Assembly (NCBI RefSeq): GCF_002608075.1
Contig: NZ_LAHA01000035.1
Coordinates: forward strand, 14,453-77,333
Direction: 5' to 3'
DNA length: 62,881 nucleotides
Source: Nostoc linckia z4
GTDB lineage: Bacteria > Cyanobacteriota > Cyanobacteriia > Cyanobacteriales > Nostocaceae
Shown here: positions 131-58,715 of the stretch, piece after piece
Numbering within the stretch: position 1 is the stretch's first letter
Layout: each line of letters starts with the position of its first letter
Program-made: the position numbers and the translations under genes
The notes under the pieces: generated by a model
Told to the model about the DNA's origin: nothing
Database searches by the model: none
Seen by the model: only the letters and a program-made list of their open reading frames with translations

Positions 131-703
131 ATGGTGACGTTCCTCAATGACTTAAACAATAACGTCAAAGGTTTTGACAACTCCAATGATGTCATTAATG
201 GTCAAGGCGGTAATGACACAATTGATGGTTTAAGTGGCAATGACTATCTGCGTGGTGGAGCAGGCAATGATATCCTCATCGGTGGTGCAGGCAATGATAC
301 TCTAGCTGGCGGTGCTGGTAACGATGTGCTTACGGGTGGCAATAATGCCGATTCTTTTATTTTCAACACCAATGCCACTTTCACTAACTCTGCTGTTGGT
401 ATCGACCAAATCACTGACTTCACACGTTCTCAAGGTGACAAAATAGTTTTAGATAAAACCACCTTCAGTCAAATTACCTCTGCTGCTGGAAATGGTTTTA
501 GTAATGTGGCTGATTTTGTGGTTGTCAATTCCACCCAAATTCAACAAGGCATCACCAGCGCTGCAATTGTTTATGATGCTGTCAGTGGGGGGTTATTCTA
601 CAACGAAAATGGTAGTGCCCCTGGTTTTGGCAATGGCGGTCAATTTGCAACTCTGGCTGGTCTGCCAAATCTGTCGGCATCTGATTTTGTTATCCAAGCC
701 TAA
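131..703 (+). CDS. hemolysin-type (RTX) calcium-binding repeat protein
   Basis: 190-aa ORF with tandem GGxGxD nonapeptides ([29 protein letters not shown]). Confidence 0.7.
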
Positions 704-1204: not shown

Positions 1205-1651
1205 TCATTCAAGACTATTTGGGAAGAAAGCAGCAGGTGAAATATGAAAAAATTTCGCTAGTTCTTCAATGTGTCTAGTTGTTAGTTTACGCTGCTTTTT
1301 CAATATGGCCGATATAATAGATTCTGTTTTGAAAATGGGTAGTAAATCTTTTTGACGTAATCCATTTTCTTCTATCAAAACCTGAAGTAAATCTATTCCA
1401 TAAATATCAGGTATAGGCTCTTGTGCTTGTTCATACTCGTAAACCAGAGTGCCTAAAATATTAAGATAATCTTTTTCATCTAATGTTAATGGGGCACTAT
1501 CTATCAAAGAATTAATAACTTCTTGAGTAGCAAATAACTCCTCCTCAGTCTTGATAGGACGAGGAGGGAATGCTTGCAACAGTTCAATGTATGTAGGGCG
1601 TTTATTTAAACCAAGGGTCATTTTTCCATTTATTTGTATCGTACTCTGCAT
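1205..1651 (-). CDS. higA: HigA-type antitoxin / HTH transcriptional regulator
   Basis: 148-aa ORF directly downstream of and overlapping a HigB-like toxin ORF. C-terminal HTH-like region (LTTRHIEELAKFFHISPAAF). Start may be the internal Met at 1621. Confidence 0.65.
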   Translation of the reverse strand: MQSTIQINGKMTLGLNKRPTYIELLQAFPPRPIKTEEELFATQEVINSLIDSAPLTLDEKDYLNILGTLVYEYEQAQEPIPDIYGIDLLQVLIEENGLRQKDLLPIFKTESIISAILKKQRKLTTRHIEELAKFFHISPAAFFPNSLE

Positions 1652-1904
1652 GAGTTAATACGTTGCGAATAAATACTTTTTGACTTTGATAGTCAATAAA
1701 AGTAATAAGCCGATATTTATTTCCTTGAATATTAAAAACCGTAAGTTCACCTACTGAATCGGCAGAGTTGAAAGTTTCACGAACTTCAAGTATATTTTGC
1801 CACTTGGCTGATTTTACGGCTTTGTTCCAACCACGTAAACTAGATTCAGCATCAGGATACTTTTGATAAAAAAGTTTTAATGCTGTATTGGAAATTACAT
1901 GCAT
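1602..1904 (-). CDS. higB: type II toxin HigB (RelE-fold mRNA interferase)
   Basis: 100-aa ORF of typical HigB size and sequence pattern (WNKAVKSAKW..FNIQGNKYRLITFIDY), with toxin-first order typical of higBA. Confidence 0.7.
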   Translation of the reverse strand: MHVISNTALKLFYQKYPDAESSLRGWNKAVKSAKWQNILEVRETFNSADSVGELTVFNIQGNKYRLITFIDYQSQKVFIRNVLTHAEYDTNKWKNDPWFK

Positions 1905-2091
1905 AGTAGATGTATTTTTTCAGAATAAATTTCATGATTTGACTTCCTTTGCAGTAGTTGAAACGACTCATAATTAATTACAACTTAGCAAATTGCTAAG
2001 TGAATGTCAACAGTTTAATGATTGGCTTTCGCTTTACCCTTATACTTCAATTAAACTCGTATACATGTTTAATGAAACAGAGAGTAGCTTT

Positions 2092-2109
2092 AAACCTGTA
2101 TACAGGTTT
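2092..2109. promoter_or_regulatory. 18-bp perfect palindrome AAACCTGTATACAGGTTT (half-site copy at 2322-2339)
   Basis: Read directly. The second copy AAACCTGTATACAAGTAT sits 24 nt upstream of the small ORF start at 2298. Confidence 0.35.
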
Positions 2110-2172
2110 CTAGACTTCATTTAAAGGATAAAGTAATTCGTAATGGTCTACGGTTTTATCGACTTCTTGACC

Positions 2173-2298
2173 TTAAAACCATTCAATCCAGTCCTCTATA
2201 TCATCAGTTTCTACTACTCTCATTTTTACTTCATCAAAATCCTCTATTGTATAAAAAACTTTATATTTTCGGTTTATATCTAATGTGCTATCGCTCAT
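2173..2298 (-). CDS. possible 41-aa acidic small protein (MSDSTLDINRKYKVFYTIEDFDEVKMRVVETDDIEDWIEWF)
   Basis: Manual translation. Below the track threshold, no recognisable family, flanked by the palindromes. Confidence 0.25.
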   Translation of the reverse strand: MSDSTLDINRKYKVFYTIEDFDEVKMRVVETDDIEDWIEWF

Positions 2299-2752
2299 AC
2301 ATTTATAAAATCTAAAACTATAAACCTGTATACAAGTATTTAATTACGCTTTTCATAATTTTATTTTTATACAAAAGTCAGTAAACTACCCTGTTTTTGA
2401 AAAAAGCAGGGGAAGCAGGGGAGGCAGGGGGAGAAGAAAGAGGGGTTATAAAAACGGATTTGGTATGAGGTAAGAAAATTAAAGTAATTTTGTCTAAATA
2501 GCTAAAACCTTCACCAGACAAGGAATCTAACCAAAATGCCAGTATGAGTGCGCCCTATTGGCGCTTGGCTGTGAGTAAATTCCAAAATTGCTTGATGTCA
2601 AAGGTTTTCAAGCATTTTGATGCAACTGAACTATTCTTCACATCTCAAGGTTGCATATTTTGATTTCAGTTCTCCCAAGAAGTAATACAGAAGGCAGTCA
2701 AACGATTACCTCAAACCAAATCAAACATCATTCTCATCTAAATCTAAAGTAT

Positions 2753-3745
2753 ATGCCTAACCCAAATTTGACAGACATTGCAAACAATCCAATTGTATAT
2801 GCACCTACGCAGACTGAGCCAGCAAACAAATATGCAAATTACTCACAAGCGAGTTCAGCGTTTGATATTTCTGAGGTAGATAACTTTCCCTTGGACAGCG
2901 ATTACGACCTCACAACCGAGCAAATCCATAACTTTCAGCACGATGGACATTTGCTGGTGCGCGGTGTAGTTTCTCCCAAAGAAATAGCTATCTACAAACC
3001 TGCGTTAGTAGAAACAGTTGACCGCTATGACCGAGAACAGCAAGCGATGGAAAAGACTGTTAGCGGTCAAAGTCAAGGATGGCAGTTTGTTGAAAACCTT
3101 TACCAACTCGATTTAGTTGCCCAACGCTTTGTTTTAGCTCGTCGGTTTGGCAAGATTGCTGCCGATTTATTAGGAGTTGATACTGTCCGCTTATTCCGCG
3201 ACCAATCTTATTTCAAAAAACCAGGAGGCGGTAATACACCGTGGCATCAAGATGGTTACTTTATGCCCCTAGATACAACTCAAATAGTCACAATGTGGAT
3301 TGCTTTGTCGGAGGTTTCCCCAGAAATGGCACCGATGACTTTTGCTAGCGGTTCCCACAAACAGGGCTATATCGGGGCTTCAATGCCGCTGGATGAGTCA
3401 ATGGATGAGTTTGAGCAATCCATTATTAAATCGGGGTTTCAACTCAAAAATTATGGAGCAATGGCAGCCGGAGATGCAAGTTTCCATTCTGGCTGGACGC
3501 TGCACAGTTCGCGCAAAAACACAAGCGATCGCACCCGCGAAGCCTTAGTGATTGTTTTTTACGCCGATGGAGCCAGGGTAACGATGCCCCCTGTACCCGC
3601 CAATGCTCTACCGCAGGAGCAGTTTGCCGCTGTAATTCGCCAACGCAACTTATCTACCTGTTTGCCAGGATTGAAACCGGGAGACTTGGCTGAAACTTCC
3701 ATGAATCCAATCGTTTACCGAAGAACTCTGACTTCTGAATTCTGA
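2753..3745 (+). CDS. phytanoyl-CoA dioxygenase (PhyH) family Fe(II)/2-oxoglutarate oxygenase
   Basis: Track ORF 2651-3745 starts at TTG, so the ATG at 2753 is preferred. HxD motif PWHQDGYF and distal His (FHSGWTLH) typical of PhyH. Confidence 0.7.
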   Translation: MPNPNLTDIANNPIVYAPTQTEPANKYANYSQASSAFDISEVDNFPLDSDYDLTTEQIHNFQHDGHLLVRGVVSPKEIAIYKPALVETVDRYDREQQAMEKTVSGQSQGWQFVENLYQLDLVAQRFVLARRFGKIAADLLGVDTVRLFRDQSYFKKPGGGNTPWHQDGYFMPLDTTQIVTMWIALSEVSPEMAPMTFASGSHKQGYIGASMPLDESMDEFEQSIIKSGFQLKNYGAMAAGDASFHSGWTLHSSRKNTSDRTREALVIVFYADGARVTMPPVPANALPQEQFAAVIRQRNLSTCLPGLKPGDLAETSMNPIVYRRTLTSEF

Positions 3746-3830
3746 ATTCTTCTTCATTTTCCCATCTCAAACCTAGCGAACCAGCAACCGCCGAAATTAA
3801 TCCGATCGCTTACTCATCTTTGTTTCTGTC

Positions 3831-6068
3831 ATGGTTTACCAACGCACTCATACCTGGCTCTACTCTTTAAAAGACTCTCTGCAACCCCTCAAGCCGCATC
3901 TGACCCCCCTAGTCTGCCCGCAAGCGATAGAACAACTCGACTCTGTAAGCAGTTACTTTCCAGATGCGATCGCTTCGACTTATGGCTTTGAATATCGCCT
4001 GCAACCTTCTGCTCCAGTAGTTGACTTTGCTTTTCAAATTACCGATACCGGTCGAGACATTTTAGCAGGCTTAAACCCCCATACACGTCTGTCGGAGGAT
4101 TTTAACAAACATCCCGTTTGGCAACAAATTCAGAAGTTCTCCACCGAATGGGCAGATCCTTCTTCCTTACTCCATTACTTCATTAGCGATCTTTGGTTAG
4201 AGTTTGATTTAAAGCTGGATGGCGATACTAGTAGCTCGCCAAGTTCACTTGGCGGGGTAAAGGGGAAAGGGGAAAGGGGAAAGGTTTTAAATCCCTTACC
4301 CTTTACCCCTTCCCCCAGCCCTGACCCAGCATTTTTGGGTTGCCAGACTACTAATATCCCCATACCTGGGTTATTTTTCGGAGTGACTAGCCCACCAGAT
4401 AATTCAGGAATCTCCTTCAACTACTCTTGGATTTGGGAACAAGCTATGCCTTTATTATTAGGCACGCCTTTGCCTCCCGCCTTAGAGAAAAAATTCATCG
4501 ACTGTATCAAACGGTTGCCTCCCCGAACCAGCATTTTTCAGGTTGGGCTGATGTTTTCCCGAACCGTGGAAGCAATAAGACTCTGCCTTGTCGGTTCTCC
4601 TTCGGAATTGCTGCCATACTTGAATGAAATAGGCTGGACGGGACAGCTTGCGGAGGTAGAAAAGCTCGTCAACTCCCTTTCTGGCTGCGTTGATGGCATT
4701 ATCCTCGACCTTGATATTGGCGAACAGATTTACCCGCGAATTGGCATTGAAGGAATTTTTCTCACCCGGTACCAAGCCTGCGTAAACGGACAATGGGAAT
4801 CGCTGCTAGATTATCTAACTTCCCAAGGTTTATGTGCCAAAGAAACCAAAGATGCTTTGCTCAAATACTCTGGTTATAGCTTAGTAAAGCATCTGGGCGA
4901 TCGCATTTACGTCCGGGGGTTGAACCATATCAAACTCATTTATCAATCAGGGCAACCCCTAGCAAGCAAAATTTATTTTGGTGCAATGCATCAACCCCTG
5001 AGTAAAATACCTGGGCGTTCTGCTGAGACGGTAAGTACAGAGGACGCAACCAAGCAAGAACGTGGCGACGGGGGGAGAGTTTCCCATATCGAATCAGCCG
5101 TTACTTTTTTGCTAACTGCACGGAATTCTGAGGGGTGGTGGATTGATTTTCACCTAGCGGCTGGCTTGAGCGATGAATGGGTGACTGGTTATGTAGGAAC
5201 AATGTTAGCGAATATACCCGATTCCCGCGTTTCTAAAGCTGTTTCCACAGCTTGGAATCTGCTCAATAGTCGCCGCCATCGCGTCAATGGCAAATGGGGT
5301 TACAATCGTTTGCCCCCTGGCGATGCAGATAGTACTGGTTGGGTACTCCAGCTTGCCCGCGCTATTGGTGAGAGTAATTCAGAACGGGCGCGTCAAGCGA
5401 TGCAATCCCTAGCAGATCATAAGCGGCCGGATGGAGGTATTTGCACCTATGAGAGTGAGGAATCGATTCGGGCTTTTATTCATGCTTCTCCGGAAATCGG
5501 ATTTGCGGGTTGGTGCGGTTCCCATACTTGCGTGAGTGCGGCAATAGCAGCTTTGCCGGAATACCGCTTTCAGCTTCAAGATTATTTGCGATCGACTCAG
5601 CAAAATGATGGTAGCTGGCTGGCTTACTGGTGGCAAGATCCCGAATATGTAACAGCTCTAGCGGCTGAGGCGATCGCCGCTTGTTATCCAAATTCTGATT
5701 GTATTACCAACGCCGTGGCGTGGGGAATGAACCGCCTTAGTTCTCAGGGATTTGTCGCAACTAGCGATTGCCCCTCTGGTTCGCCATTTGCCACAGCTTG
5801 GTGCTTGCGACTGCTGATACTGAGACGGCAAGATACCGCAGTACAAGCAGCGATCGCCAAGGCAACTGATTGGTTATTAGCACAGCAACAGCCCAATGGT
5901 TCTTGGATTTCGTCAGCCAGGTTGCAAGTTCCATTACCGGATGACCTAAATCCCAATAAATTTAACCAGTGGATTTACCACGGCACGATTCAAGGCAGTG
6001 TAGTTTTTGACAAGTATTGTGTCTTCACCACCGCCACCGTATTACAAGCTCTACATCGTAGTTTATAA
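3831..6068 (+). CDS. two-domain protein: unknown N-terminal ~400 aa plus C-terminal terpene-cyclase/prenyltransferase-like alpha/alpha-toroid repeats
   Basis: 745 aa. C-terminal repeats of the squalene-cyclase type (EGWWIDF, DADSTGWVLQ, RPDGGICTY, QQNDGSWLAYWW, QQQPNGSWIS). Ends 12 nt before lanM. Confidence 0.65.
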   Translation: MVYQRTHTWLYSLKDSLQPLKPHLTPLVCPQAIEQLDSVSSYFPDAIASTYGFEYRLQPSAPVVDFAFQITDTGRDILAGLNPHTRLSEDFNKHPVWQQIQKFSTEWADPSSLLHYFISDLWLEFDLKLDGDTSSSPSSLGGVKGKGERGKVLNPLPFTPSPSPDPAFLGCQTTNIPIPGLFFGVTSPPDNSGISFNYSWIWEQAMPLLLGTPLPPALEKKFIDCIKRLPPRTSIFQVGLMFSRTVEAIRLCLVGSPSELLPYLNEIGWTGQLAEVEKLVNSLSGCVDGIILDLDIGEQIYPRIGIEGIFLTRYQACVNGQWESLLDYLTSQGLCAKETKDALLKYSGYSLVKHLGDRIYVRGLNHIKLIYQSGQPLASKIYFGAMHQPLSKIPGRSAETVSTEDATKQERGDGGRVSHIESAVTFLLTARNSEGWWIDFHLAAGLSDEWVTGYVGTMLANIPDSRVSKAVSTAWNLLNSRRHRVNGKWGYNRLPPGDADSTGWVLQLARAIGESNSERARQAMQSLADHKRPDGGICTYESEESIRAFIHASPEIGFAGWCGSHTCVSAAIAALPEYRFQLQDYLRSTQQNDGSWLAYWWQDPEYVTALAAEAIAACYPNSDCITNAVAWGMNRLSSQGFVATSDCPSGSPFATAWCLRLLILRRQDTAVQAAIAKATDWLLAQQQPNGSWISSARLQVPLPDDLNPNKFNQWIYHGTIQGSVVFDKYCVFTTATVLQALHRSL
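4254..4316. repeat. G/A-rich hairpin repeat (GGGGTAAAGGGGAAAGG...CCCTTACCCTTTACCCCTTCCCCC) embedded in frame in CDS 3831-6068
   Basis: Imperfect inverted repeat. The same family occurs intergenically at ~815-880 and 24700-24750. Translates to GGVKGKGERGKVLNPLPFTPSPSP. Confidence 0.6.
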
Positions 6069-6079
6069 GGAAAATTAAG

Positions 6080-9000
6080 ATGAACCCAGTTATTTCTAGT
6101 ATCTCTACACAGCAGTTGCCCGCGATCGCCAACCCCGTTATTTCTACAACTCAGTTGCAAAGCATCGTTAGCCGCGCTAGCAATCTGTTTGAACGACTCG
6201 ATCGCCAGATTTTCTCACCCTCCCCCGAAACTGATGAAAAACTCTTGCAATCGCGTCTTGAGACTTGGTGTCAGACAGTAGCAAAAGGAAATTTCGAGCA
6301 TTTTCAACAATACTTGCAATGGGATGGGCTGAATTTAGAAACAGCAAAAAGCGCGATCGCACCTGTATGTTTGCGCCACGATGCTCCCCTACCCAACTGG
6401 GCAAAGACACTCTCATCTGTTCTCAATCTTGCCTTTTCTCAGGCAGCAACAAATCTTGATGCAAAGACCTCACATCGCTTTTTGATTCCCCAGTCTCCCC
6501 TTCCCTTTGAAGAGATTCTCGCTCCATTTGTTTTATTTGCTCAACAAGAACTAATTGCTAGAACTGGCGAGTCTTACCAGAGATTAACCGATGAGGTTCA
6601 TGGTGTATTTGAACGCAGTTTGCTAGGTCAGTTAATTGACATCGCCACACAACCTTTACAGATAGCTTTTACCAGTTGGCGAGTCGCTCAACAATCCTCT
6701 TTTACTCGTCTACTGACACAGACACAAGAACTGCAAAGCCGCAACCTCTATATCCGCTTTGTTCGGGAAATGTTGCAGGGCAAACTAACTTCTTTTTTTG
6801 TAGAATATGCTGCTTTAGCAAGGTTACTGGCTACGGCAACCGAACTTTGGGTAGAATCGCAGTTAGAATTTCTGCATCACTTGGACGCAGACTGGTCAGA
6901 AATTGCAGAGAAATTTAACAACGGTTTACCTCTCGGTCAGGTGACAGCGGTGCAGCCTCTCCGATCTGACCCCCATCGCGGCAGACGCTCTGTAATTACA
7001 CTGAAAATCGAGCCAAATCTGCACTTAGTATACAAACCCAAGCATTTAGGCATTGAACAGGCGTACAATCAGTTTTTGGCTTGGTTAAACGAACAGGGTT
7101 CTCCTCTGCCTCTAAAAACCTTGCAAGTAATTAACCGCGATACTCACGGCTGGGTAGAGTTTGTCACCTCCCAAGCCTGTGAAGATACAGCCCAAATAGA
7201 ACGCCATTACCAACGGGCAGGGATGTTATTATGTTTGGTTTACGTGCTAGATGCTACCGATTGTCACTACGAAAATATCATTGCCTCTGGAGAATATCCA
7301 GTTCTAATTGATACCGAAGCTGTGATGCAGCATCGACCGAAAAACGAGTCATCAGCAAACCTACAGACTGCTCAACAACTCGCATTCCATCGCGTAGATA
7401 ATTCCGTGATGCGTACTGCCTTATTACCTGTCTGGCATCCAGCAGCCAATGGTAACTCCGGCTTTGATTTCAGTGGCTTGGGCAGCCACAATCAAGAGAC
7501 TAGGCATTATAAAGGACTCCAGTGGTCTGGCGTAAATACAGACCAGATGGCTTTAAATCAAAAGCTGCTGGCGATCGATCCATTTTTAGCTCACGTGCCA
7601 ACCTTAAATGGACAACCTGCCAATTTATCAGACTGGATAGAGGCAGTGGTGGAAGGATTTGAGCAGATGTATCGCTTCCTGCAAGAGAAACAAGACGTGT
7701 TACTCTCCCCAGATAGCCCGCTGCGGACAATGGCAAAACAGCTTGTGCGCTTTGTGTTTCGCCCCACAAACACTTATTTGAGAATTTTAAGCAAGCTCCG
7801 TAGTTCAGAGTACTTGCGGGATGGAGTTGACCGCAGTATTGGACTGGAAATCCTCAAGTTAACAGCAGCAGGCGCAACTGAAAAACCAAAATTCTGGTCT
7901 CTTCTCCAGTCTGAACGCCAACAAATGGAGCAGTTGGATGTTCCTTTTTTCTCAATTTATCCTGATACAGATGTGTTGGAGTTATCCCCAGATAGTCGCG
8001 TTGAGGGATTTTTCCAAGGTTCTAGCTTTGAATTAGTACTAGAGCGCATCAACAACCTGAGCAAATCTGATTTGGCGATACAAGTTGATTTTATCCGCAG
8101 CACTCTATATTTAAGAATGGTTCCCGGTCAAGAGATAGCTGCACCGGAAAAACCTGCCAATCAAACTTCTCTAAGCGTGCAGCAATCATCTGAGGCGATG
8201 CTGGATGAGTCAGATTTGGTTGCTGAGGTCATGGCAATTGCCCGCAGATTAAAAGAGCGAGCGATTTGCGCTCCTGATGGATCTGTAACTTGGCTTGCTC
8301 CTCAGTTTATCGCTCAACAACAGCGATTCCAATTTCAACCCACAGAACTGAGCCTTTTTGATGGCAAATTAGGAATTGCATTATTTCTGGCAGCGGTAGA
8401 GCATATTAAAAAAGATGGAGAGTTTCGAGAACTGTGTTTGGGAGCGTTGCAGGAGTTTCGTCAGGCGGTAGCCAAAATTGAACAGCCAAAAGGTGAATTC
8501 TCAAACCTGAATCTTGGCTTATCAACTGGACTAGGAGGATGGATTTACAGCCTGACTAAAATCGGTCAGTTTCTCAATGACGATCGCTTGCTTGCAGATG
8601 CTCTAAATTTGGCATACTCGATAGTACCAGAGGCAATTACTAGCGATCGCAGTTTGGATATCGCCGGCGGTACAGCAGGTACGCTTTTGAGTTTATTGGC
8701 ATTGTACCAGGTTGTTCGCGACCCAATTGTGCTAGAACGTGCCTGCCTGATTGGTCGTCATTTATTAGCCGAAAGTGTAATAACTTCTAAAGGCAGAGCT
8801 TGGAAAACGCTGGATGGTCGATTGTTAACGGGCTTTTCCCACGGAGCAGGCGGAATTGCCTACGCCCTGCTGAAACTGGCACAGGTGACGAATGATGCTG
8901 AGTTTCGGGCGGCTGCCGCAGAAGCGATCGCCTACGAACAAAGTATATTTTTACCAGAGGTAGGCAACTGGCCGGATCTCAGGGACTTTTCTAAATTTCT

Positions 9001-9448
9001 CCAAGCAAGTGCCAAATCCGAATCTTCTTCACTGATGTCTAGTTGGTGTCACGGTGCAACCGGTATCGGTTTAGCCCGCCTTGGCGGACTGCCAATGTTA
9101 GAAACTGAAGCAATCGATCGGGATATCCAAGTGGCAATCAAAACTACCCAAAAGCAACTCACCCAGAAACAAGGGATAGTAAACCAACTATGCTGCGGTC
9201 AGATGGGACAGATTGAATTTCTGCTATGTGCAGCCAGCCGATTGGGAAAACCAGATTTGTTGACAAATGCCAAAATTCATGCATTACAAATTGTGCAGCA
9301 AGCAAGACACAAAGGATATTATCTCGAACCCGCCCTACACTCAAGCGTATACGTTCCTGGTTTATTCCGTGGTGAGGTTGGTATTGGTTATACTTTGCTG
9401 CGCCTAACTCATCTGGAACAACTGCCTTCAATTCTTTTATGGGAATAG
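6080..9448 (+). CDS. lanM: class II lanthipeptide synthetase LanM
   Basis: 1122 aa. N-terminal dehydratase-domain motif DCHYENII. C-terminal LanC-like cyclase motifs SHGAGGIAYAL, WCHGATGIG, CCGQMG. Confidence 0.85.
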   Translation: MNPVISSISTQQLPAIANPVISTTQLQSIVSRASNLFERLDRQIFSPSPETDEKLLQSRLETWCQTVAKGNFEHFQQYLQWDGLNLETAKSAIAPVCLRHDAPLPNWAKTLSSVLNLAFSQAATNLDAKTSHRFLIPQSPLPFEEILAPFVLFAQQELIARTGESYQRLTDEVHGVFERSLLGQLIDIATQPLQIAFTSWRVAQQSSFTRLLTQTQELQSRNLYIRFVREMLQGKLTSFFVEYAALARLLATATELWVESQLEFLHHLDADWSEIAEKFNNGLPLGQVTAVQPLRSDPHRGRRSVITLKIEPNLHLVYKPKHLGIEQAYNQFLAWLNEQGSPLPLKTLQVINRDTHGWVEFVTSQACEDTAQIERHYQRAGMLLCLVYVLDATDCHYENIIASGEYPVLIDTEAVMQHRPKNESSANLQTAQQLAFHRVDNSVMRTALLPVWHPAANGNSGFDFSGLGSHNQETRHYKGLQWSGVNTDQMALNQKLLAIDPFLAHVPTLNGQPANLSDWIEAVVEGFEQMYRFLQEKQDVLLSPDSPLRTMAKQLVRFVFRPTNTYLRILSKLRSSEYLRDGVDRSIGLEILKLTAAGATEKPKFWSLLQSERQQMEQLDVPFFSIYPDTDVLELSPDSRVEGFFQGSSFELVLERINNLSKSDLAIQVDFIRSTLYLRMVPGQEIAAPEKPANQTSLSVQQSSEAMLDESDLVAEVMAIARRLKERAICAPDGSVTWLAPQFIAQQQRFQFQPTELSLFDGKLGIALFLAAVEHIKKDGEFRELCLGALQEFRQAVAKIEQPKGEFSNLNLGLSTGLGGWIYSLTKIGQFLNDDRLLADALNLAYSIVPEAITSDRSLDIAGGTAGTLLSLLALYQVVRDPIVLERACLIGRHLLAESVITSKGRAWKTLDGRLLTGFSHGAGGIAYALLKLAQVTNDAEFRAAAAEAIAYEQSIFLPEVGNWPDLRDFSKFLQASAKSESSSLMSSWCHGATGIGLARLGGLPMLETEAIDRDIQVAIKTTQKQLTQKQGIVNQLCCGQMGQIEFLLCAASRLGKPDLLTNAKIHALQIVQQARHKGYYLEPALHSSVYVPGLFRGEVGIGYTLLRLTHLEQLPSILLWE

Positions 9449-9460
9449 CAGCTTTTGAAT

Positions 9461-9497
9461 TTACCGCGACGTGATGCGTAGAATCAAGTCGCGGTAA
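9461..9497 (+). terminator. hairpin TTACCGCGAC-N17-GTCGCGGTAA after lanM
   Basis: 10-bp perfect stem starting 13 nt after the lanM stop, followed by T-rich sequence. Confidence 0.4.
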
Positions 9498-9718
9498 GCT
9501 GTTTGTTATTGTCACAATTAATTTTGCAGTTGTAGTCTAACTACCAAATCCCAACTTGTATATCTATAGAATATAGTGATAGCTATTGAGCCTAACACCA
9601 ATTATCCTCTGCTTCTATCTGTAATTGAAAAGCAATGAGATGAGATTCAATTATATTTGCTACGTCAGTTTTTTTAATTTATCTAGCGATCGCACCTTTA
9701 ATATTGCAAATAGTCTGC

Positions 9719-10174
9719 TCACTCCACCAACAACCCACTCACTACCAAAACCCTCAACTCCGTCACCCGCTTAAAAGCCGCATCATTAGTCAAAAACGCC
9801 TCACAACCAGCCATTAAAGCCGCCGCCACCTGCAACGCATCGGGTAACTGAAGGTTATAACGCACCCGAATTTTCGCGGCTTCTCGCGCAATAGCAGCAT
9901 TAATTTCTACAAAAACTACTTGTTCTTGTTGCAACATATCGACAAAAGCCTGCTCTAAATCCACTAACCCCAGACGTATAGCACCCACCAAACACTCTGA
10001 TAACGTTATTCCAGATACTACTGCTGTAATGTCAGCTTCTAACCGATCAAAAATTGGATCGACTAAATCCACAAACAACGGATTCCGTTCTACAAAATAA
10101 ATTACGGGTGCTGTGTCGAGAAATAAGCGAGAAACTCCAGCTAAGGCATCACTAATCTTCATTGTTCTGTTCAC
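9719..10174 (-). CDS. vapC: PIN-domain toxin VapC
   Basis: 151 aa. PIN acidic residues in context (FLDTAPVIY, LTNDAAF). GTG start overlaps the upstream stop (GTGA). Alternative ATG at 10162. Confidence 0.75.
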   Translation of the reverse strand: MNRTMKISDALAGVSRLFLDTAPVIYFVERNPLFVDLVDPIFDRLEADITAVVSGITLSECLVGAIRLGLVDLEQAFVDMLQQEQVVFVEINAAIAREAAKIRVRYNLQLPDALQVAAALMAGCEAFLTNDAAFKRVTELRVLVVSGLLVE

Positions 10175-10428
10175 AACAACCGTTCTCGATGCTCATCTCC
10201 TTCCCGTCGAGTCCGCGAAACCCATTCTTGAGCATCTTCACCTAATAATGGATAGGGAGCCATACCCTTCAAATCGCTCCACTTGCGTTTTGGTTGCGCC
10301 TGAGTGATATGTTTCTTTACACGCTCCAGCAAATGCCCCATCACTGTCAATTGCTCCTCTGGAGTCAGTTGTTCAATCTCGCTTAAAACTTTTTCAAGTG
10401 ATGGACTCATCAACCTAACCCTTATCAA
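10171..10428 (-). CDS. antitoxin partner of VapC
   Basis: 85-aa ORF overlapping vapC by 4 nt, consistent with type II TA architecture. Confidence 0.6.
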   Translation of the reverse strand: MIRVRLMSPSLEKVLSEIEQLTPEEQLTVMGHLLERVKKHITQAQPKRKWSDLKGMAPYPLLGEDAQEWVSRTRREGDEHRERLL

Positions 10429-10793
10429 CAGAATTAAATTGTAGCGTCTTTACTCTTCTGCTCTGGCGTAACTTTTAGATAACGTTGCAACCTTCCCTCT
10501 TCGCTCGGATCGCTACCTATGGGGTTTTCTCAGCAAAATAGATAAAAATTTCAGTAGGTCGAAAACTTTTATTAGAGGATGTTTGAAACAGTCGAAACCA
10601 GTCAAAAATCATGCTAGTCATCCGATCGTAATACGAATCATGACAAGATAAATGAATGTCTTTGAGGTTTCAGGTAGTCTTTTATAATCCTTTATTTAGA
10701 TTAAAAACTTGGTGAATTTGACGAAATGATGGGGTTTCAGCCGATGATGTTGGAAAGAGCGATCGCTCTATTCGTTTATCCAATACTAGGTAC

Positions 10794-13700
10794 TTGAAAA
10801 TCAGATTTTACAGTAATTCAGTAATGGCTACCTACTTTGAGGGTGTGATGTCTAAAGTAAGTATGGGTGAAAACTGGTTTTTAAAGCTAGGGATGGTTGC
10901 GGTTAATGTCAGACATTTAGATTGGTTACTTACATTAGGAATGGCGATCGCATTTCACCCAAATATCGCCATTGCACAAATCACCCCAGATACAACATTA
11001 CCCAATAATAGCAATGTAAATACACTAAATAACATTACAAATATCACTGGTGGCACACAAGCAGGAACTAATCTGTTTCACAGTTTCAGCGAATTTTCTG
11101 TTCTCAAAGATACTACAGCTTACTTTAATAATCCTCCAGATATTCAAAATATTATTAGTCGAGTTACAGGTGGTTCGCAATCAAAAATAGACGGAATTTT
11201 GCGGACGAACGCTACAGCGAATTTATTTTTAATTAATCCAAACGGCATTATTTTTGGAGAAAATGCCCGCTTAGATATTGGTGGTTCATTTATTGCTAGC
11301 ACAGCAAGTAGCATCAAATTTGCTAATGGTTTTGAGTTCAGTGCTACGACTCCTGAATCTACACCTTTACTAACGATAAATACACCCATTGGCTTGCAAT
11401 ATGGAGTTAATCCAGCCACTATTGAGGTCAAAGGCGACGGTCAAGGTGTAAGGCTCACAGATGAATTGATTGATACAACAAATGCACTGCGAGTACCAGC
11501 CAATCAAACTTTAGCCTTGGTGGGTGGCGATATTTCCTTAGAGGGAGCAACGCTAAAGACAGCAGGGGGAAGAATAGAGTTAGGCAGTGTAGGGGATAAC
11601 AGTTTAGTTAGTCTCACACCGATAACTAAAGGTTTTGCCTTGAGCTACGATGGAGTGCAAAACTTTGGCAATATTCAACTATCAAAACTTTCAGCGGTAG
11701 ATGCCAGTGGCGCAGGTAGCGGTGACATCCAAATCCAGGGTCAGCGGGTTACCATAGCCGATGGTTCCCAGATAGAAGCAAGTACTCTGTTAGAAGAAAA
11801 AGGTGGGAATTTAGTAGTCAATGCTACTAATTCAGTAGAATTAATTGGTACATCTGCTGATGGTTACTTTTCCAGTGGCTTGCTTGCTTCTGCTTACTCA
11901 ACCGGGGATGCCGGAGACTTGACAATTAATACTCAAAATTTGCTTGTGCTAGATGGGGCGCAAGTAAGTACAGCCACATTTGGTACGGCTAAGGGCGCTT
12001 CTTTAACTGTCAATGCTCAAGATGTGCAACTGATTGGTACTACTGCCGATGGTCTTTTTCCCAGTGGCTTGTTTGTTTCTACTCAATCAACAGGAGATGG
12101 CGGAGACTTGACAATTAATACCCAAAATTTGCTGGCGATCGATGGGGCACAGGTAGCTGTATATACATCTGGTGCAGGTAAGGCGGGTTCTTTAACTGTC
12201 AATGCTAAAGATGTGCAAATGATTGGTACTGTCAATAGTCAGTTTCCCAGTGGCTTGTTCAATTATGCTTACTCAACCGGGGATGCCGGAGACTTGAGGA
12301 TTAATACCCAAAATTTGCTTGTGCGCGATGGAGCTAATGTTGCTACGCAGACATATAGTGCAGGTAAGACGGGTTCTATAACTGTCAATGCTGAAGATAT
12401 ACAACTAATTGGTAGGAGTCCAAATGGTGACTTTGCCAGTGACTTATCTGTTAACGCTGGTTTAGGGTCAACTGGGGATGCTGGAAATTTGACGATTAAT
12501 ACCCAACGTTTGCTCGTGCGGGATGGGGCATACGTTGATGCCAGCATATACGGTACAGGTAAGGGTGGTTCTTTAACTATCACTGCTAATGATATACAAC
12601 TGATTGGTACTTCTACTGATGGTCGCTTTAGGAGTGGCTTGTTTACTCAAGCTTATTCAGGAATAACTGGGGATGCCGGAAACTTGACAATTAATACCCA
12701 ACGTTTGCTTGTGCTAGATGGCGCACAAATAGATGCAGAGACATATGGTGCAGGTAAGGGGGGTTTTTTAACTATCACTGCTAAAGATGTACAACTGATT
12801 GGTACTTCTAGTAATGGTTACTTTCCTAGCGGCTTGTTGACTTCTACTCTCTCAACCGGAGATGCAGGAAACTTGAAAATTGATACCCAACAGTTGCTTG
12901 TGCGGGATGGGGCACTGATAAATACCAGTACATCGGGTACAGGTAAAGGAGGTTCTTTAACTGTCACTGCTAACGATGTGCAACTGATTGGTGAGTCTAT
13001 TGATGGTTATCTTAAGAGCCGTTTATTTACTACTGCTGCCGTTGGAACAACTGGCAATGCAGGAGATTTGACAATTAATACTCAATATTTGCTGGTACGG
13101 GATGGTGCATTTGTTGATGCCAGTACACAAGGTACAGGTAAAGGAGGTTCTTTAACTGTCAATGCTCAAGATGTGCAACTGATTGGTGTCTCTAGTGATG
13201 GGCGTTCTGGCAGTGGTTTGAATACATCTGCTCAGTCAGGGTCAACTGGCGATGCTGGAGACTTGACAATTAATACTCAACAGTTGCTCGTGGGCGATGG
13301 GGCACAGGTGGGTGCAACCACATCGGGCGTAGGCAAGGGAGGTTCTTTAACTGTCAATGCCAAAGATGTGCAATTGATTGGTACTACTGCTGATAGTCGC
13401 TTTCCCAGTGGCTTGTTTACTACTGCTTACACAGGAGCAACTGGGGATGCAAAATTTTTGACAATTAATACCCAACAATTGCTTGTACGTGATGGGGCAA
13501 AAATCAGCGCCGGAACACAGAGTGCAGGTAAAGGGGGTTCTTTAACTGTCAATGCTCAAGATGTGCAATTGATTGGTACGTCTGCTGATGGTAGTTCTAG
13601 TAGTGGCTTGTTTGCTTCTACTGAATCAACTGGGGATGCAGGAGATTTAAAGATTAGTAGCGATAAATTACTCGTTCAAGATGGGGCGATAATCACTGTC

Positions 13701-14528
13701 AGAAGCTCAGGTAAAGGAATTGCAGGGAATTTAAATATTGATGCTGACTTTATCCGTTTGAACAACAAGGCTTCTGTTGATGCTAATACCCAGGCTGTCA
13801 ACACTGACCCGACTCAAGAACAAGCTACTATTACTTTGCGCTCTCAAAATTTACTATTGCTTCGTAATAGTAAAATCACCACTAATGCTTCTGGAGAAAA
13901 TGTCATCGGTGGCAATATCAATATTAATACTGATTTTTTAGTTGCATCTGACAATAGTGATATCAGTGCTAATTCTGCTGACTTTCGAGGTGGTCAGGTG
14001 ATAATCAATGCCAAAGGAGTATTTGGTACTCAATTTCGTGATGCACTCACCCCAAATAGCGATATCACTGCTACAGGAGCTAATCAGCAGTTGAATGGTA
14101 CAGTGCAACTCAATACACCACAACAAGATCCCACAAATGGTTTAGAGGAATTGCCATTAGAAGTAGTGGATGCCTCACAATTAATTAACCAAAACTTCTG
14201 TGCCAAAAGAGGTAATAGTAGCTTCACCATCGTTGGACGTGGTGGTTTACCTTCTTCCCCCAACACTGTGCTTAACAATAATACAGTTTGGGAAGATTGG
14301 CGAGTCACTGCTGTGCCAACACAAGCAGCAGAGTACACCAGTAAAAGAGATATTGAGAAAACTTCAGCACTCAGTACAGAGATTGTAGAAGCTCAGGGGT
14401 GGGTTGTGAATGCTAAAGGTGAAGTGATACTGACAGCTGCTGCACCGACTCCAAGACCCCACAGCTTGAGGAATTTACTTCAAGGGGCGACAAGCGAGTT
14501 AAAGTGCTTGCTGTATAAGCAGCATTGA
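10794..14528 (+). CDS. two-partner-secretion (filamentous haemagglutinin N-terminal domain) repeat exoprotein
   Basis: TPS domain (ITGGTQAGTNLFHSFSEFSV, LFLINPNGIIFG), then about ten ~72-aa repeats (GDAGDLTINTQ.LLV.DGA...GKGGSLTVNA.DVQLIGT). The true start is probably an ATG downstream of the TTG at 10794. Confidence 0.8.
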   Translation: MKIRFYSNSVMATYFEGVMSKVSMGENWFLKLGMVAVNVRHLDWLLTLGMAIAFHPNIAIAQITPDTTLPNNSNVNTLNNITNITGGTQAGTNLFHSFSEFSVLKDTTAYFNNPPDIQNIISRVTGGSQSKIDGILRTNATANLFLINPNGIIFGENARLDIGGSFIASTASSIKFANGFEFSATTPESTPLLTINTPIGLQYGVNPATIEVKGDGQGVRLTDELIDTTNALRVPANQTLALVGGDISLEGATLKTAGGRIELGSVGDNSLVSLTPITKGFALSYDGVQNFGNIQLSKLSAVDASGAGSGDIQIQGQRVTIADGSQIEASTLLEEKGGNLVVNATNSVELIGTSADGYFSSGLLASAYSTGDAGDLTINTQNLLVLDGAQVSTATFGTAKGASLTVNAQDVQLIGTTADGLFPSGLFVSTQSTGDGGDLTINTQNLLAIDGAQVAVYTSGAGKAGSLTVNAKDVQMIGTVNSQFPSGLFNYAYSTGDAGDLRINTQNLLVRDGANVATQTYSAGKTGSITVNAEDIQLIGRSPNGDFASDLSVNAGLGSTGDAGNLTINTQRLLVRDGAYVDASIYGTGKGGSLTITANDIQLIGTSTDGRFRSGLFTQAYSGITGDAGNLTINTQRLLVLDGAQIDAETYGAGKGGFLTITAKDVQLIGTSSNGYFPSGLLTSTLSTGDAGNLKIDTQQLLVRDGALINTSTSGTGKGGSLTVTANDVQLIGESIDGYLKSRLFTTAAVGTTGNAGDLTINTQYLLVRDGAFVDASTQGTGKGGSLTVNAQDVQLIGVSSDGRSGSGLNTSAQSGSTGDAGDLTINTQQLLVGDGAQVGATTSGVGKGGSLTVNAKDVQLIGTTADSRFPSGLFTTAYTGATGDAKFLTINTQQLLVRDGAKISAGTQSAGKGGSLTVNAQDVQLIGTSADGSSSSGLFASTESTGDAGDLKISSDKLLVQDGAIITVRSSGKGIAGNLNIDADFIRLNNKASVDANTQAVNTDPTQEQATITLRSQNLLLLRNSKITTNASGENVIGGNININTDFLVASDNSDISANSADFRGGQVIINAKGVFGTQFRDALTPNSDITATGANQQLNGTVQLNTPQQDPTNGLEELPLEVVDASQLINQNFCAKRGNSSFTIVGRGGLPSSPNTVLNNNTVWEDWRVTAVPTQAAEYTSKRDIEKTSALSTEIVEAQGWVVNAKGEVILTAAAPTPRPHSLRNLLQGATSELKCLLYKQH

Positions 14529-24853: not shown

Positions 24854-26216
24854 ATGACTCCTCCAGAAAATCAAAACATCATCGAAGAAAGAAAAGAACT
24901 AATTAAGGAAGTACTAAGCGCTTATCCCGAAAAAGCAGCTAAAAAACGGGAAAAGCACCTAAACGTATACGAAGAAGGTAAGAGCGATTGCGGCGTTAAA
25001 TCTAACATCAAATCTCTTCCTGGTGTAATGACCGCTCGTGGTTGTGCTTACGCCGGTTCAAAAGGTGTGGTTTGGGGCCCTATTAAGGACATGATCCACA
25101 TCAGCCACGGGCCTGTAGGTTGCGGTTACTGGTCTTGGTCTGGTCGTCGTAACTACTACATTGGTACTACAGGTGTAGACACCTTTGGTACCATGCACTT
25201 CACCTCTGACTTCCAAGAACGGGATATCGTTTTCGGTGGTGACAAAAAACTCACCAAACTCATCCAAGAATTGGAAGTTCTTTTCCCTCTCAACCGTGGT
25301 GTTTCCATTCAATCTGAATGTCCCATCGGTCTAATCGGGGATGACATCGAAGCAGTAGCTCGGAACACATCCAAAGAAATTGGCAAGCCAGTTGTTCCCG
25401 TTCGTTGCGAAGGTTTCCGCGGTGTTTCTCAGTCCTTGGGTCACCACATCGCTAACGACATGGTGCGTGACTGGGTGTTCACCAGAGCCGACAAAGAGAA
25501 AAAAGAAGGCAAATTACAATTCGAGTCTACTCCTTACGACGTAGCAATCATCGGTGACTACAACATCGGTGGTGATGCTTGGGCTAGCCGGATTCTGTTA
25601 GAAGAACTGGGCTTGCGCGTAGTTGCTCAGTGGTCTGGTGATGGTACAATCAACGAAATGTTGATGACACCGAACGTGAAGATGAACTTGATTCACTGCT
25701 ACCGTTCGATGAACTACATCAGCCGTCACATGGAAGAAGCTTATGGTATACCCTGGTTGGAGTACAATTTCTTCGGCCCCACCAAGATTGCTGAATCCTT
25801 ACGGGAAATCGCTTCTAAATTTGACTCCAAGATCCAAGAAAACGCTGAGAAGATCATCGCTAAGTATCAGCCCACAATGGATGCGATCGTTAACAAGTAT
25901 CGCCCCCGTTTGGAAGGTAAGACCGTTGCGATGATGGTTGGTGGTTTGCGTCCTCGCCACGTTGTACCCGCTTTCCAAGATTTGGGTATGAAGATGGTCG
26001 GTACAGGTTATGAGTTCGCTCACAACGACGACTACAAACGTACCACCCACTACATCGAAAACGGCACCATCGTTTACGATGACGTAACTGCTTATGAATT
26101 CGAGGAATTTGTAAAAGCACTCAAGCCAGACTTAATTGCTTCTGGTGTGAAAGAGAAGTACGTCTTCCAAAAGATGGGTCTACCCTTCCGTCAAATGCAC
26201 TCCTGGGATTACTCCG
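24854..26216 (+). CDS. nifD: nitrogenase MoFe protein alpha chain NifD, 5' segment (interrupted by element)
   Basis: [31 protein letters not shown]. NifD similarity stops at the 11-bp repeat. The track ORF continues 31 unrelated codons to 26308. Confidence 0.95.
26206..26216 (+). repeat. left 11-bp recombination core GGATTACTCCG
   Basis: Identical to 58705-58715. Flanking bases differ on both sides. Confidence 0.9.
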
Positions 26217-26591
26217 AACCTAGCGATGCCTTCTCTTTCAGAGACGCTACCGCGAACGGCGGGCTTCGCCAACGCACTTACAAGTCAATTAAATCAATAT
26301 TTTTTTAGCTATCGGAGAAAAAAGAGCCTATTTCTAGCCTAAATCCAAATTACAAGCTTATTCATTAACAATCTGTTTTAATACTTCAGACAGTATAACT
26401 CTTATGTAATCTGGTTTTTAGATTTGAAAAGCATTTTGCTCCAAGAAAAACTGTTAAATAAAAGACTATTTTAGATGACGATTTTTTAGATTAAATGGCT
26501 AAATTTTTTTGTGTAGCACAAAGACGCAAATAAGAATGCAAAAATTCTGAATTTTTCTAAAGTGTAAGGTAATACTATATGCTGGTCTAAC

Positions 26592-27014: not shown

Positions 27015-27677
27015 ATGACAATTTTGATCGTAGAAACTCTATGCTCCGAAGCTGCTATATTTTCAGCAACCGAGTCTTTACATCCAGAACCTTTGCTATA
27101 TGGTGTGACTGATGGTAAGGCTGTCGGGACATACTTGGAACAAAAATTTAGACTTTATCTCAAACAGCGATATGAATTTGTAGAGGGTAATTCTGCAAGC
27201 AGTATTGACTTTCCAGGGTTACTTGTAGATGTGAAGGTAACAAGCATTCGACAACCACAATCATCATGTCCTTTCAAATCTGCACGTCAAAAGATATTTG
27301 GGCTTGGGTATTCGCTGCTGATTTTCGTCTACGATAAAACAGACAATAGTACGAACCGCACAGCAACCCTAAATATTTTGCATACTATTTATGTAAGCGC
27401 CGAAAGAACCGCAGATTTTCAGATGACTCGTGCAATTCGCAATATCATAGCAAACGAAGGTAATAAAGATGATTTAATTGCCTTCATGCTCGATCGCAAT
27501 TTACCCGTTGATGAAATTGAGGCAAGCAACATTGCCGATGAAATTATGAGCAATCCACCGGTACAGGGTTTTCTGACTATTTCCAACGCTTTGCAATGGC
27601 GACTCCAGTATGGAAGAGTAATAGAACGTGCTGGTCAAGAAGATGGTATAATTCCTGTTTACAAAATTAATCAATGA
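27015..27677 (+). CDS. probable type II restriction endonuclease
   Basis: 220 aa. PD-(D/E)xK-like IDFPGLLVDVKVTS. 4-nt ATGA overlap with the downstream methyltransferase. Confidence 0.55.
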   Translation: MTILIVETLCSEAAIFSATESLHPEPLLYGVTDGKAVGTYLEQKFRLYLKQRYEFVEGNSASSIDFPGLLVDVKVTSIRQPQSSCPFKSARQKIFGLGYSLLIFVYDKTDNSTNRTATLNILHTIYVSAERTADFQMTRAIRNIIANEGNKDDLIAFMLDRNLPVDEIEASNIADEIMSNPPVQGFLTISNALQWRLQYGRVIERAGQEDGIIPVYKINQ

Positions 27678-29116
27678 CTCATACTGCACATAAAACAAAG
27701 ATAGAGTACGGAGATTTCCAGACACCATTAGAATTAGCTAATAAAGTATGTAAAAAGCTAGTTGCACTCGGCATAACACCAGATATTATAGTTGAGCCAA
27801 CGTGTGGAGTTGGTAATTTTATTGAAGCAGCTTTAGATTCATTTCAATCAGTAAATAAAATTTTTGGAGTTGAAATCAATCCCGATTATTTAAATCAAGC
27901 TCAAACAAAAGCTAAATTTGTTAATCATAAAAGAATTGAAATTATATATGGAAATTTTTTTAAATTTGATTGGTCATCAATTATAGAAAAATCAAATCAT
28001 CAAATATTAGTAATTGGTAATTTACCTTGGGTAACAAACTCGCAGCAAGGTAGCATTGATGGAAAGAATTTACCAAATAAGAGTAATTTCCAAAACTATT
28101 CTGGTTTAGATGCAATTACAGGTAAGAGTAATTTTGATATATCTGAATGGATGTTAATTCAAGTTGTGCAATGGCTACAAAAGCGTGAAGGTTATCTAGC
28201 GATTTTATGTAAGAGTTCTGTTGCTAGGAAAATATTAACGTATATTAGTTCTCAAAAATTACATCTTGCTTACTGTGCAACTTACAAAATAGATACAAAA
28301 AAATATTTTGATGCTACTGTTGACGCGTGTTTACTGTTATGTAGATTTGAGTCAAATTCCAAAAATTATTTCTGTGATGTATTCAGTAGCCTTGAAACTT
28401 CTAATTATTATCGAATAGGTTATTGGAATAATGTACTTGTCAGAGATATTATTACATTTGAAAAACTACAAAATCTATACGATAAAAAATCAAAAATAAA
28501 ATGGCGCTCTGGTATTAAGCATGATTGCGCCAGTGTGATGGAGTTTCGCAAAATTAACAACACTCTGATTAATGGATTGGGAGAAGCTGTTGGTATTGAA
28601 GAAACATATCTGTTTCCTTTGCTTAAAGGTTCCTATGTTGCTCAAAATAAAACAAAGGTTACTGATAGATATGTTTTAGTAACTCAAAGATTTGTGGGTG
28701 AATCTATCGAACATATTAAAAATTACGCTCCTAAAACTTGGAACTATCTAGAAGCATATTCACAATACCTCGACAAAAGAAAAAGTAAGATTTATCAAAA
28801 TAACCCTCGATTTTCTATTTTTGGTGTAGGTTCGTATACTTTTGCACCTTGGAAAATTGCAATTTGTGGACTTTACAAAAAATTGGACTTTAGATTGATA
28901 GGTAAGATAGAAGAAAAACCTACTGTTTTTGATGATACAGTTTACTTTATTAGCTTTGATGATGAGAAAATTGCATATAAAACTTTTGAACTTTTGACTT
29001 CTTCAATAGCAAAAGAATTTTATTCGTCTCTAATTTTTTGGGATGAAAAGCGCCCAATCAAGTCTAGTATTTTAAATAAATTAAACTTGGCAGCTTTGGC
29101 AGAAGTATTAATTTGA
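27674..29116 (+). CDS. N6-adenine DNA methyltransferase
   Basis: 480 aa. SAM motif I EPTCGVGNFIEAA and motif IV-like VIGNLPWV. AT-rich gene. Confidence 0.75.
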   Translation: MTHTAHKTKIEYGDFQTPLELANKVCKKLVALGITPDIIVEPTCGVGNFIEAALDSFQSVNKIFGVEINPDYLNQAQTKAKFVNHKRIEIIYGNFFKFDWSSIIEKSNHQILVIGNLPWVTNSQQGSIDGKNLPNKSNFQNYSGLDAITGKSNFDISEWMLIQVVQWLQKREGYLAILCKSSVARKILTYISSQKLHLAYCATYKIDTKKYFDATVDACLLLCRFESNSKNYFCDVFSSLETSNYYRIGYWNNVLVRDIITFEKLQNLYDKKSKIKWRSGIKHDCASVMEFRKINNTLINGLGEAVGIEETYLFPLLKGSYVAQNKTKVTDRYVLVTQRFVGESIEHIKNYAPKTWNYLEAYSQYLDKRKSKIYQNNPRFSIFGVGSYTFAPWKIAICGLYKKLDFRLIGKIEEKPTVFDDTVYFISFDDEKIAYKTFELLTSSIAKEFYSSLIFWDEKRPIKSSILNKLNLAALAEVLI

Positions 29117-58704: not shown

Positions 58705-58715
58705 GGATTACTCCG
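58705..58715 (+). repeat. right 11-bp recombination core GGATTACTCCG
   Basis: Identical to 26206-26216. Confidence 0.9.

Follow-up and report, generated by a model that had tools for sequence, protein, structure and literature searches.

The 62,881-nt stretch of Nostoc linckia z4 DNA analysed here, which we call the window, carries near its left end three enzyme genes and, as far as the eye can tell, nothing for them to work on: a PhyH-family dioxygenase, a 745-aa protein of two dissimilar halves and a class II lanthipeptide synthetase, LanM. What is their substrate, and what might they make of it? We argue that the window very probably holds the enzyme half of an NHLP-leader (proteusin-type) lanthipeptide cluster, the product of which would carry a cyclised polyprenyl chain on a Trp, by a pathway of the kind known from the enzyme NctPC. 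The argument is built on which genes are present, on the folds and catalytic residues of their products, on co-conservation and on the precursor genes themselves, which lie just beyond the left edge of the window. The cluster is a further member of a kind of ribosomally synthesised and post-translationally modified peptide (RiPP) pathway that was characterised recently (2024), and it is not a new system; the interest that remains lies in the role of PhyH, in a tandem NHLP leader and in departures from the terpene cyclase MstE at its residues Y157 and R337.

The enzyme genes

The initial annotation of this DNA described three co-directional, close-set genes, and its coordinates (Table 1) are borne out, each gene being a long open reading frame (ORF) with strong profile matches, so that chance features can be discounted. 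The gap between the PhyH gene and the gene for the 745-aa protein is 85 nt, and that between the latter and lanM is 11 nt. For PhyH, the ORF call agrees with a second NCBI record (L009, below); an alternative TTG start at 2651 would give 364 aa.

In Pfam, LanM shows an N-terminal dehydratase domain, DUF4135 (PF13575; E 3.6e-122), and a C-terminal cyclase domain, LANC_like (PF05147; E 2.2e-60), within one polypeptide, and it scores 894.9 bits against TIGR03897 (cut-off, 304). Its cyclase domain, read in translation, has the zinc-ligand motifs WCHG and LCCG, which we take to be of the three-Cys, ProcM-like type. PhyH matches PF05721 (E 1.3e-25; 91.3 bits against a cut-off of 22) and has an intact iron-binding pattern, composed of His-x-Asp (WHQDGYF) and a distal His (FHSGWTLH); NCBIfam holds no equivalog-level match to it. 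The protein between them is WP_099068204.1 at 100% identity, and the public annotation labels of its family include “hypothetical.” According to structure models, two domains are fused in it, one a prenyltransferase (P) and the other a terpene cyclase (C), and we refer to it and its relatives as PC.

The cyclase half left a faint trace in profile scans and a strong one in searches against the PDB. Pfam finds SQHop_cyclase_C at aa 583-694 with 26.1 bits, exactly the cut-off, and TIGR01787 matches weakly at aa 481-694. The full-length AlphaFold2 (AF2) model, with an overall predicted local distance difference test (pLDDT) of 64, is confident in the C-terminal half only. Foldseek against the PDB returns as its top match MstE, the merosterolic acid synthase of Scytonema sp. 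PCC 10023 (PDB 6SBB-6SBG) and a monodomain, beta-only class II cyclase (E 5e-27, 55-57% identity, TM score on the target 0.84), and phmmer against the PDB agrees (E 7e-119, about 57% identity, query aa 6-329 of 332, that is, protein residues 419-742). Three functional residues were placed by comparison with deposited MstE mutants, of which 6sbd and 6sbe are changed at D109. In the invariant segment P-G-D-A-D-S-T-G-W, the second Asp is D500, which aligns with D109, and D498, A499, D500, S501 and T502 are invariant among 12 homologues. The C domain and MstE have in common both the D-A-D acid motif and a GWCG(S/A)HTCVSAA segment. That the canonical DxDD is missing is explained by MstE itself, the acid motif of which is DxD instead of DxDD (PMC12324236). 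We also asked whether the invariant C562, H565 and C567 might be the ligands of a zinc site that alkylates thiols, as in LanC or farnesyltransferase; the idea was rejected, as MstE has the same GWCG(A/S)HTCVSAA segment and is a cyclase of the protonation type.

The first ~400 residues gave no family match in Pfam and NCBIfam profile scans, and the 37 stand-alone homologues recovered by a profile search with this domain (mostly 320-420 aa) include none with a Pfam domain. Remodelled alone by AF2 with 28 stand-alone homologues, the domain resolved, and its predicted fold is the ABBA prenyltransferase barrel. It shows no detectable sequence similarity to the cyanobactin F-type prenyltransferases (no Pfam match). 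The initial annotation had seen a prenyl- or terpene-fold tailoring enzyme, with squalene-cyclase/prenyltransferase-type repeats in the C-terminal half. In the tailoring enzyme it was right; the identity that had been left blank is an MstE-type cyclase fused to an ABBA prenyltransferase.

One oddity of the P domain is a G/A-rich hairpin repeat inserted in frame (GGGGTAAAGGGGAAAGGGGAAAGGGGAAAGG...CCTTACCCTTTACCCCTTCCCCC), with a related repeat at 814-843. The 50-aa insertion is present here and, in another form, in one relative (L006, below), is a gap in all other homologues aligned and is modelled as a disordered loop (pLDDT <50 for aa 136-173). The repeat segment draws spurious matches to unrelated Nostoc proteins, which match the 745-aa protein nowhere else (P0020-P0024; kinase, glycosyltransferase, TrbI).

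The precursor genes

Where, then, is the peptide? Within the window, it is not to be found. Nothing plausible as a LanA appears among the ORFs of at least 20 aa in 1850-3900 and 9400-10850; tblastn of 20 NHLP and Nif11 precursors from related loci against the whole window gave nothing significant; and a regular expression for GG...W[TS]GC cores has 0 matches in the window. Two weak, recurrent tblastn matches were rejected as chance, one (33389-33427) in a short ORF within a repeat-like stretch and the other (52610-52554) inside a 111-aa ORF that looks XisI-like by eye and stands next to an XisH-like ORF. The initial annotation had found no LanA-like ORF in the flanks, and with ORF scan, tblastn and regular expression together covering all 62.9 kb, that observation holds.

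The conclusion drawn from it, that the substrate would be encoded elsewhere in the genome or would be no peptide at all, does not. The window and another N. linckia record, LAHJ01000032.1 (L009), are the same contig, differing at 1 of 16,068 nt, and L009 reaches 2,177 nt further left than window base 1. A lanA just outside the region read had been named beforehand as the finding that would overturn the proposal, and L009 holds two, both with NHLP leaders and on the same contig, ending 1,312 and 197 nt left of window base 1 and 2.95 kb upstream of PhyH. The product of L009 1370-1978 scores 126.8 bits against TIGR03793 (leader_NHLP; cut-off, 50.9), and because the match falls in two stretches, we read the leader as a tandem NHLP duplication. 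The leader terminates in an ELVAGG cleavage motif, so that a Gly-Gly precedes the core as in proteusin-type precursors. The two precursors have an identical core, SDTQNHSWTGCASGQSGCVATKGCDAAVATVGVTLAATAAL, and leaders that differ at 4 of 162 residues. A tandem leader might provide separate docking sites for LanM and for PC and PhyH.

The precursor seemed to be missing because the window ends where it does, and an insertion made matters worse. About 2.66 kb (L009 2092-4753, window -86 to 2576) have no counterpart in the N. calcicola locus; when that locus (L013) is compared with L009 by blastn, colinearity stops at L009 2091 and resumes at L009 4754. The block, which stands outside the pathway, has pushed the precursor genes away from PhyH.

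Related loci and the core motif

The 745-aa protein family forms 19 clusters at 90% identity, and all those with an organism name are cyanobacterial. A test of co-occurrence had been suggested for the three genes, and they prove to be a co-conserved functional unit: the order and orientation PhyH-PC-LanM are kept in all 10 other distinct cyanobacterial loci with PC and LanM (Nostoc sp. C052, a Chroococcidiopsidaceae metagenome-assembled genome (MAG), a JGI metagenome contig, N. calcicola FACHB-3891, Nostoc sp. DSM 114161 and five Nostoc MAGs). Nine of these have one to eight NHLP precursor genes directly upstream, and a pair of HlyD and C39-peptidase ABC transporter genes is usually near. The exception is Nostoc sp. 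DSM 114161 (L006), where, on a chromosome of 8.68 Mb, the triad is 87-97% identical to that of the window and has an ABC transporter gene upstream; no NHLP precursor was found within 10 kb on either side of it, and in L006 the precursor is genuinely remote or has been lost.

What do the precursors share? W-T-G-C occurs in 24 of 24 cores from a motif search that itself required W[TS]GC (mostly as SWTGCASG(Q/R)xGC), and it occurs as well in every called precursor examined at the related loci, with tails C-terminal of the motif that vary. It is kept even in an Acidimicrobiaceae locus (L010, the same as L019), the NHLP precursor of which has the core SEWTGCASGQSGCVATNGC; here the P domain has a gene to itself, the C domain is in pieces through frameshifts, and LanM is present.

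Other loci combine the parts differently. PC fusions without LanM occur in Acidimicrobiia, Solirubrobacteraceae and Bacteroidota. At L011, where LanM is absent, two NHLP precursors with unrelated Cys-rich cores accompany a C39-ABC transporter and two more proteins, one of 375 aa with the P domain and one of 389 aa without a family match; at L012, P-domain paralogues of 411 and 414 aa, arranged in tandem, stand beside a shikimate-dehydrogenase-like gene and a flavoprotein gene. Taken together, the loci without LanM tie the P and C activities to RiPP precursors in general, and the version with W-T-G-C and LanM is one subfamily of this association.

The oxygenase

PhyH is the probable hydroxylase of the pathway. 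Its orthologues, 70-98% identical, lie immediately upstream of the PC gene in each of the 10 cyanobacterial loci, and PhyH is absent from the Acidimicrobiaceae locus, although the W-T-G-C core motif is kept there. Another arrangement occurs in a Hymenobacteraceae MAG (L038, 9592-13044), where a gene for a Nif11-like peptide is followed by a separate P-domain ORF and then by a 674-aa ORF (11020-13044) that joins an MstE-like C domain and PhyH in one reading frame. The peptide (TIGR03798, 29.8 bits, just below the 32.3 cut-off) ends in GTSIGWS, and there is no LanM within 10 kb. Across phyla, PhyH tracks PC rather than LanM, and because of the fusion, we suggest that PhyH acts with the cyclase on the Trp-terpenoid part and not on the lanthipeptide backbone. 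It is a tentative thought, and one that we would sooner bet against, that PhyH belongs to the prenyl-cyclase module as its third activity, oxidising the cyclised terpenoid or its Trp and not hydroxylating peptides at large, and that this has not yet been described.

Two other PhyH proteins deserve mention. P0019, from a close relative, was considered as a PhyH-cyclase fusion; it joins PhyH residues 1-233 to a C domain, lacks the P domain and the distal His, comes from a 2.1-kb contig and is probably a deletion or misassembly, and it was not used. In Nostoc sp. C052 (L001, 8557-9996), the PhyH orthologue is longer by 186 aa at its N terminus; a segment of this extension faintly resembles a Nif11 leader (TIGR03798, 17.7 bits, below cut-off), and the enzyme may here have acquired a leader-like domain by fusion.

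A proposed pathway

In the pathway that we propose, the two 203-aa precursors would be made first, each with its tandem leader, ELVAGG and core. LanM would dehydrate Ser and Thr residues and close thioether rings, three at most, on Cys11, Cys18 and Cys24 of the core, a step that is suggested by family membership and by the published order of events. The P domain would then move a polyprenyl chain onto Trp8, in W-T-G-C; the chain would probably be a C20 geranylgeranyl from the cellular pool of geranylgeranyl diphosphate (GGPP), which cyanobacteria produce for pigments. The C domain would protonate the distal double bond through D500 of D-A-D and so cyclise the chain into a peptide-attached polycyclic terpenoid. 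For both of these steps, the proposal draws on the fold and homology found here and on the published activity of NctPC. PhyH would hydroxylate the product, most likely in its Trp-terpenoid part, and a C39-peptidase ABC transporter with HlyD, the genes of which are known from related loci, would cleave after GG and export the peptide.

That this orthologue carries out the same chemistry, with this chain length and this target of PhyH, is what we infer. Prenylation had been predicted from the sequence at the outset, should a lanthipeptide be made, and it is the chemistry to be expected.

Comparison with known systems

The NctPC study reportedly arrived at a cyanobacterial proteusin, with an NHLP-type precursor and a pseudosteroid-like polycycle. 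As the work (Hubrich et al., Chem 2024) is summarised in a 2026 review (PMC13290415), NctPC attaches a C20 geranylgeranyl to Trp and its C domain then cyclises the chain; Wakeel et al. cite the report for macrocyclisation before prenylation of the lanthipeptide (PMC12715784), and the product appears under the name steromaze in the account of PMC13647313. As described there, NctPC is, like the 745-aa protein, a bifunctional ABBA-barrel prenyltransferase and MstE-like cyclase, with a class II lanthionine synthetase as partner and Trp as acceptor (PMC13290415). The N. linckia locus has the N-terminal ABBA domain, the MstE-like C domain with its catalytic Asp and, off the window and on the same contig, the Trp-bearing RiPP precursor; it differs in that its precursors have been displaced by an insertion.

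MstE is free-standing, with geranylgeranyl-dihydroxybenzoate as its substrate, whereas the C domain here is fused to a prenyltransferase. MppC and MppM of Moorena producens (PMC12715784) offer another cyanobacterial class II lanthipeptide in which the ring comes first and a leader-dependent ABBA prenyltransferase then modifies a core Trp, but MppC is a stand-alone enzyme of the cyanobactin family that uses C10 geranyl diphosphate, has no cyclase domain and goes with a Nif11 leader. In ChrPC (PMC13290415), prenylation of a RiPP Trp is likewise followed by cyclisation by a fused C domain, although the P domain is trans-isoprenyl-diphosphate-synthase-like, of the isoprenoid-synthase fold, and not an ABBA barrel. 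With ProcM and the prochlorosins, the locus shares a cyanobacterial LanM that has the CCG-type motif, and leaders of the NHLP or Nif11 kind that are long and end in GG. Prochlorosin precursors, however, are many, diverse and often remote, whereas those of the present family have fixed W-T-G-C-A-S-G-x-x-G-C cores and are normally adjacent, and a prenyl-cyclase and an oxygenase have been added.

Weighing the alternatives

Two other explanations would detach the enzymes from the peptide, and both seem to us very improbable. In one, this is an orphan LanM cluster, with precursors far off in the genome, as for prochlorosins, or with a substrate that is not a peptide; the empty window and the precursor-less surroundings of the triad in Nostoc sp. 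DSM 114161 would fit such a view, but for this locus it is refuted by the two W-T-G-C-core precursors of L009, which lie on the same strand as the enzymes, and the adjacency of precursors in 9 of 10 other loci speaks against it as well. In the other, to which we give hardly any credence either, the 745-aa protein would serve, like MstE, to make a small-molecule meroterpenoid and be a mere neighbour of the lanthipeptide genes. Against this stand its conservation alongside LanM and NHLP precursors in two phyla, the invariant core Trp and the stand-alone P-domain homologues that adjoin NHLP precursors without LanM (L011), along with the Nif11-like peptide gene beside the PC locus L038. The protein itself also departs from an MstE-type pathway, as its cyclase is fused to a prenyltransferase, has F549 in place of Y157 and lacks the loop with R337, and window scans found neither a UbiA-type prenyltransferase nor an aromatic-acid biosynthesis gene near the PC gene.

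The explanation that we take more seriously, while still thinking it unlikely, is that the locus is a decaying remnant, its genes intact and its product lost, with an operon split by an insertion and a transporter gone. Several observations that weigh against a working lanthipeptide-terpenoid pathway point this way. The precursors are parted from the enzymes by the 2.66-kb insertion, which carries two minus-strand ORFs, one of them a HigB toxin gene; the P domain bears the 50-aa repeat insertion; no transporter or protease gene was found in the window or on L009, where C39-ABC and HlyD genes are both missing, and 0 transporter, protease or GGPP synthase genes turned up among 20 large ORFs scanned in the rest of the window; and the PC gene is reduced to an 86-aa fragment in N. 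linckia NIES-25 and cut to 343 aa in N. calcicola FACHB-389. Because of the insertions, the contig without a transporter and the NIES-25 fragment, the locus may be decaying in this lineage. Yet all three enzyme ORFs are full length with intact catalytic motifs, both precursor genes are intact and nearly identical, and the repeat occupies a loop that is variable in the PC family. L009 begins just 254 nt upstream of the first precursor, and a transporter may sit on another contig.

Further reservations concern the chemistry of the lanthipeptide-terpenoid pathway that we favour. MstE Y157 is replaced by F549, a Phe invariant in the PC family, and the six-residue MstE loop that carries R337, assumed by us to bind the substrate carboxylate, has no counterpart between I720 and Q721; because of these two changes, the outcome of cyclisation may differ from that of MstE. 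The likeness to NctPC is one of described architecture, and the N. linckia pathway is predicted from genes and models.

Other features of the window

Directly downstream of lanM lie a minus-strand PIN-domain toxin gene (9719-10428) with a small upstream partner ORF and then, on the plus strand, a 1244-aa repeat protein with a TPS (two-partner-secretion, haemagglutinin-like) domain (10794-14528). Farther on, nifD is interrupted by a 32.5-kb element that leaves pieces at 24854-26308 and 58703-58855; beyond ...HSWDYS, the ORF no longer resembles NifD, and the gene's true 3' end stands just upstream of nifK. An 11-bp direct repeat, GGATTACTCCG, bounds the element at 26206-26216 and 58705-58715 (2 matches against 0.01 expected) and is the one known from the classic nifD excision element of Anabaena, which measures 11 kb; the element in the window is about three times longer. 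Upstream are nifB, nifS, nifU and nifH; downstream are nifK and another nitrogenase-component-1-type ORF. At the nifK-proximal end, a 433-aa ORF (57050-58351, minus strand) with no Pfam match is by its position a candidate XisA-type recombinase, and ORFs that look XisH- and XisI-like by eye lie at 52350-53089 (minus strand).

Table 1. Features in and next to the window (window positions; negative numbers lie left of window base 1)
Feature	Position	Strand	Remarks
PhyH-family Fe(II)/2-oxoglutarate dioxygenase, 330 aa	2753-3745	+	ATG start; PF05721
745-aa PC protein	3831-6068	+	P domain and C domain
P domain, aa 1-392, ABBA-fold aromatic prenyltransferase barrel (predicted)	3831-5006	+	predicted acceptor, core Trp
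In-frame 150-nt G/A-rich hairpin-repeat insertion, aa 127-176 of P domain	4209-4358	+	gap in homologue alignment
C domain, aa 414-745, MstE-type monodomain class II terpene cyclase	5070-6068	+	D498-A-D500 acid motif
LanM, class II lanthipeptide synthetase, 1122 aa	6080-9448	+	DUF4135 and LANC_like
NHLP-leader precursor 1, 203 aa	-1923 to -1312 (L009 255-866)	same as PhyH	off-window
NHLP-leader precursor 2, 203 aa	-808 to -197 (L009 1370-1981)	same as PhyH	off-window
RTX-repeat ORF in insertion	131-703	+	Pfam HemolysinCabind
ORF in insertion, possible antitoxin by position only	1205-1651	-	no family assigned
HigB toxin gene in insertion	1602-1904	-	Pfam HigB_toxin
MmeI-like methyltransferase-domain protein	27674-29116		nifD element cargo (26300-58700)
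SPFH protein	29241-30779		nifD element cargo
Group II intron-type reverse transcriptase	31534-32586		nifD element cargo
RTX-repeat protein	37198-38385		nifD element cargo
Cache/HAMP histidine kinase	38696-40909		nifD element cargo
DUF4912/PBP protein	41520-43979		nifD element cargo
Patatin-like lipase	47552-49222		nifD element cargo
STAND NTPase with effector-associated domain	54528-56225		nifD element cargo

Implications

A missing precursor near the edge of a window should, as this case shows, be checked against the full contig. Once that is done, what had been a LanM without a substrate beside a 745-aa protein of no known kind becomes a concrete assignment, that of a lanthipeptide-terpenoid hybrid. 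For annotation and genome mining, the useful results are the domains assigned to PC and their catalytic Asp, together with the conserved acceptor motif W-T-G-C and a set of about 12 cyanobacterial and actinobacterial loci; for enzymology, the leads are the fusion of C domain and PhyH in Bacteroidota and the tandem NHLP leader.

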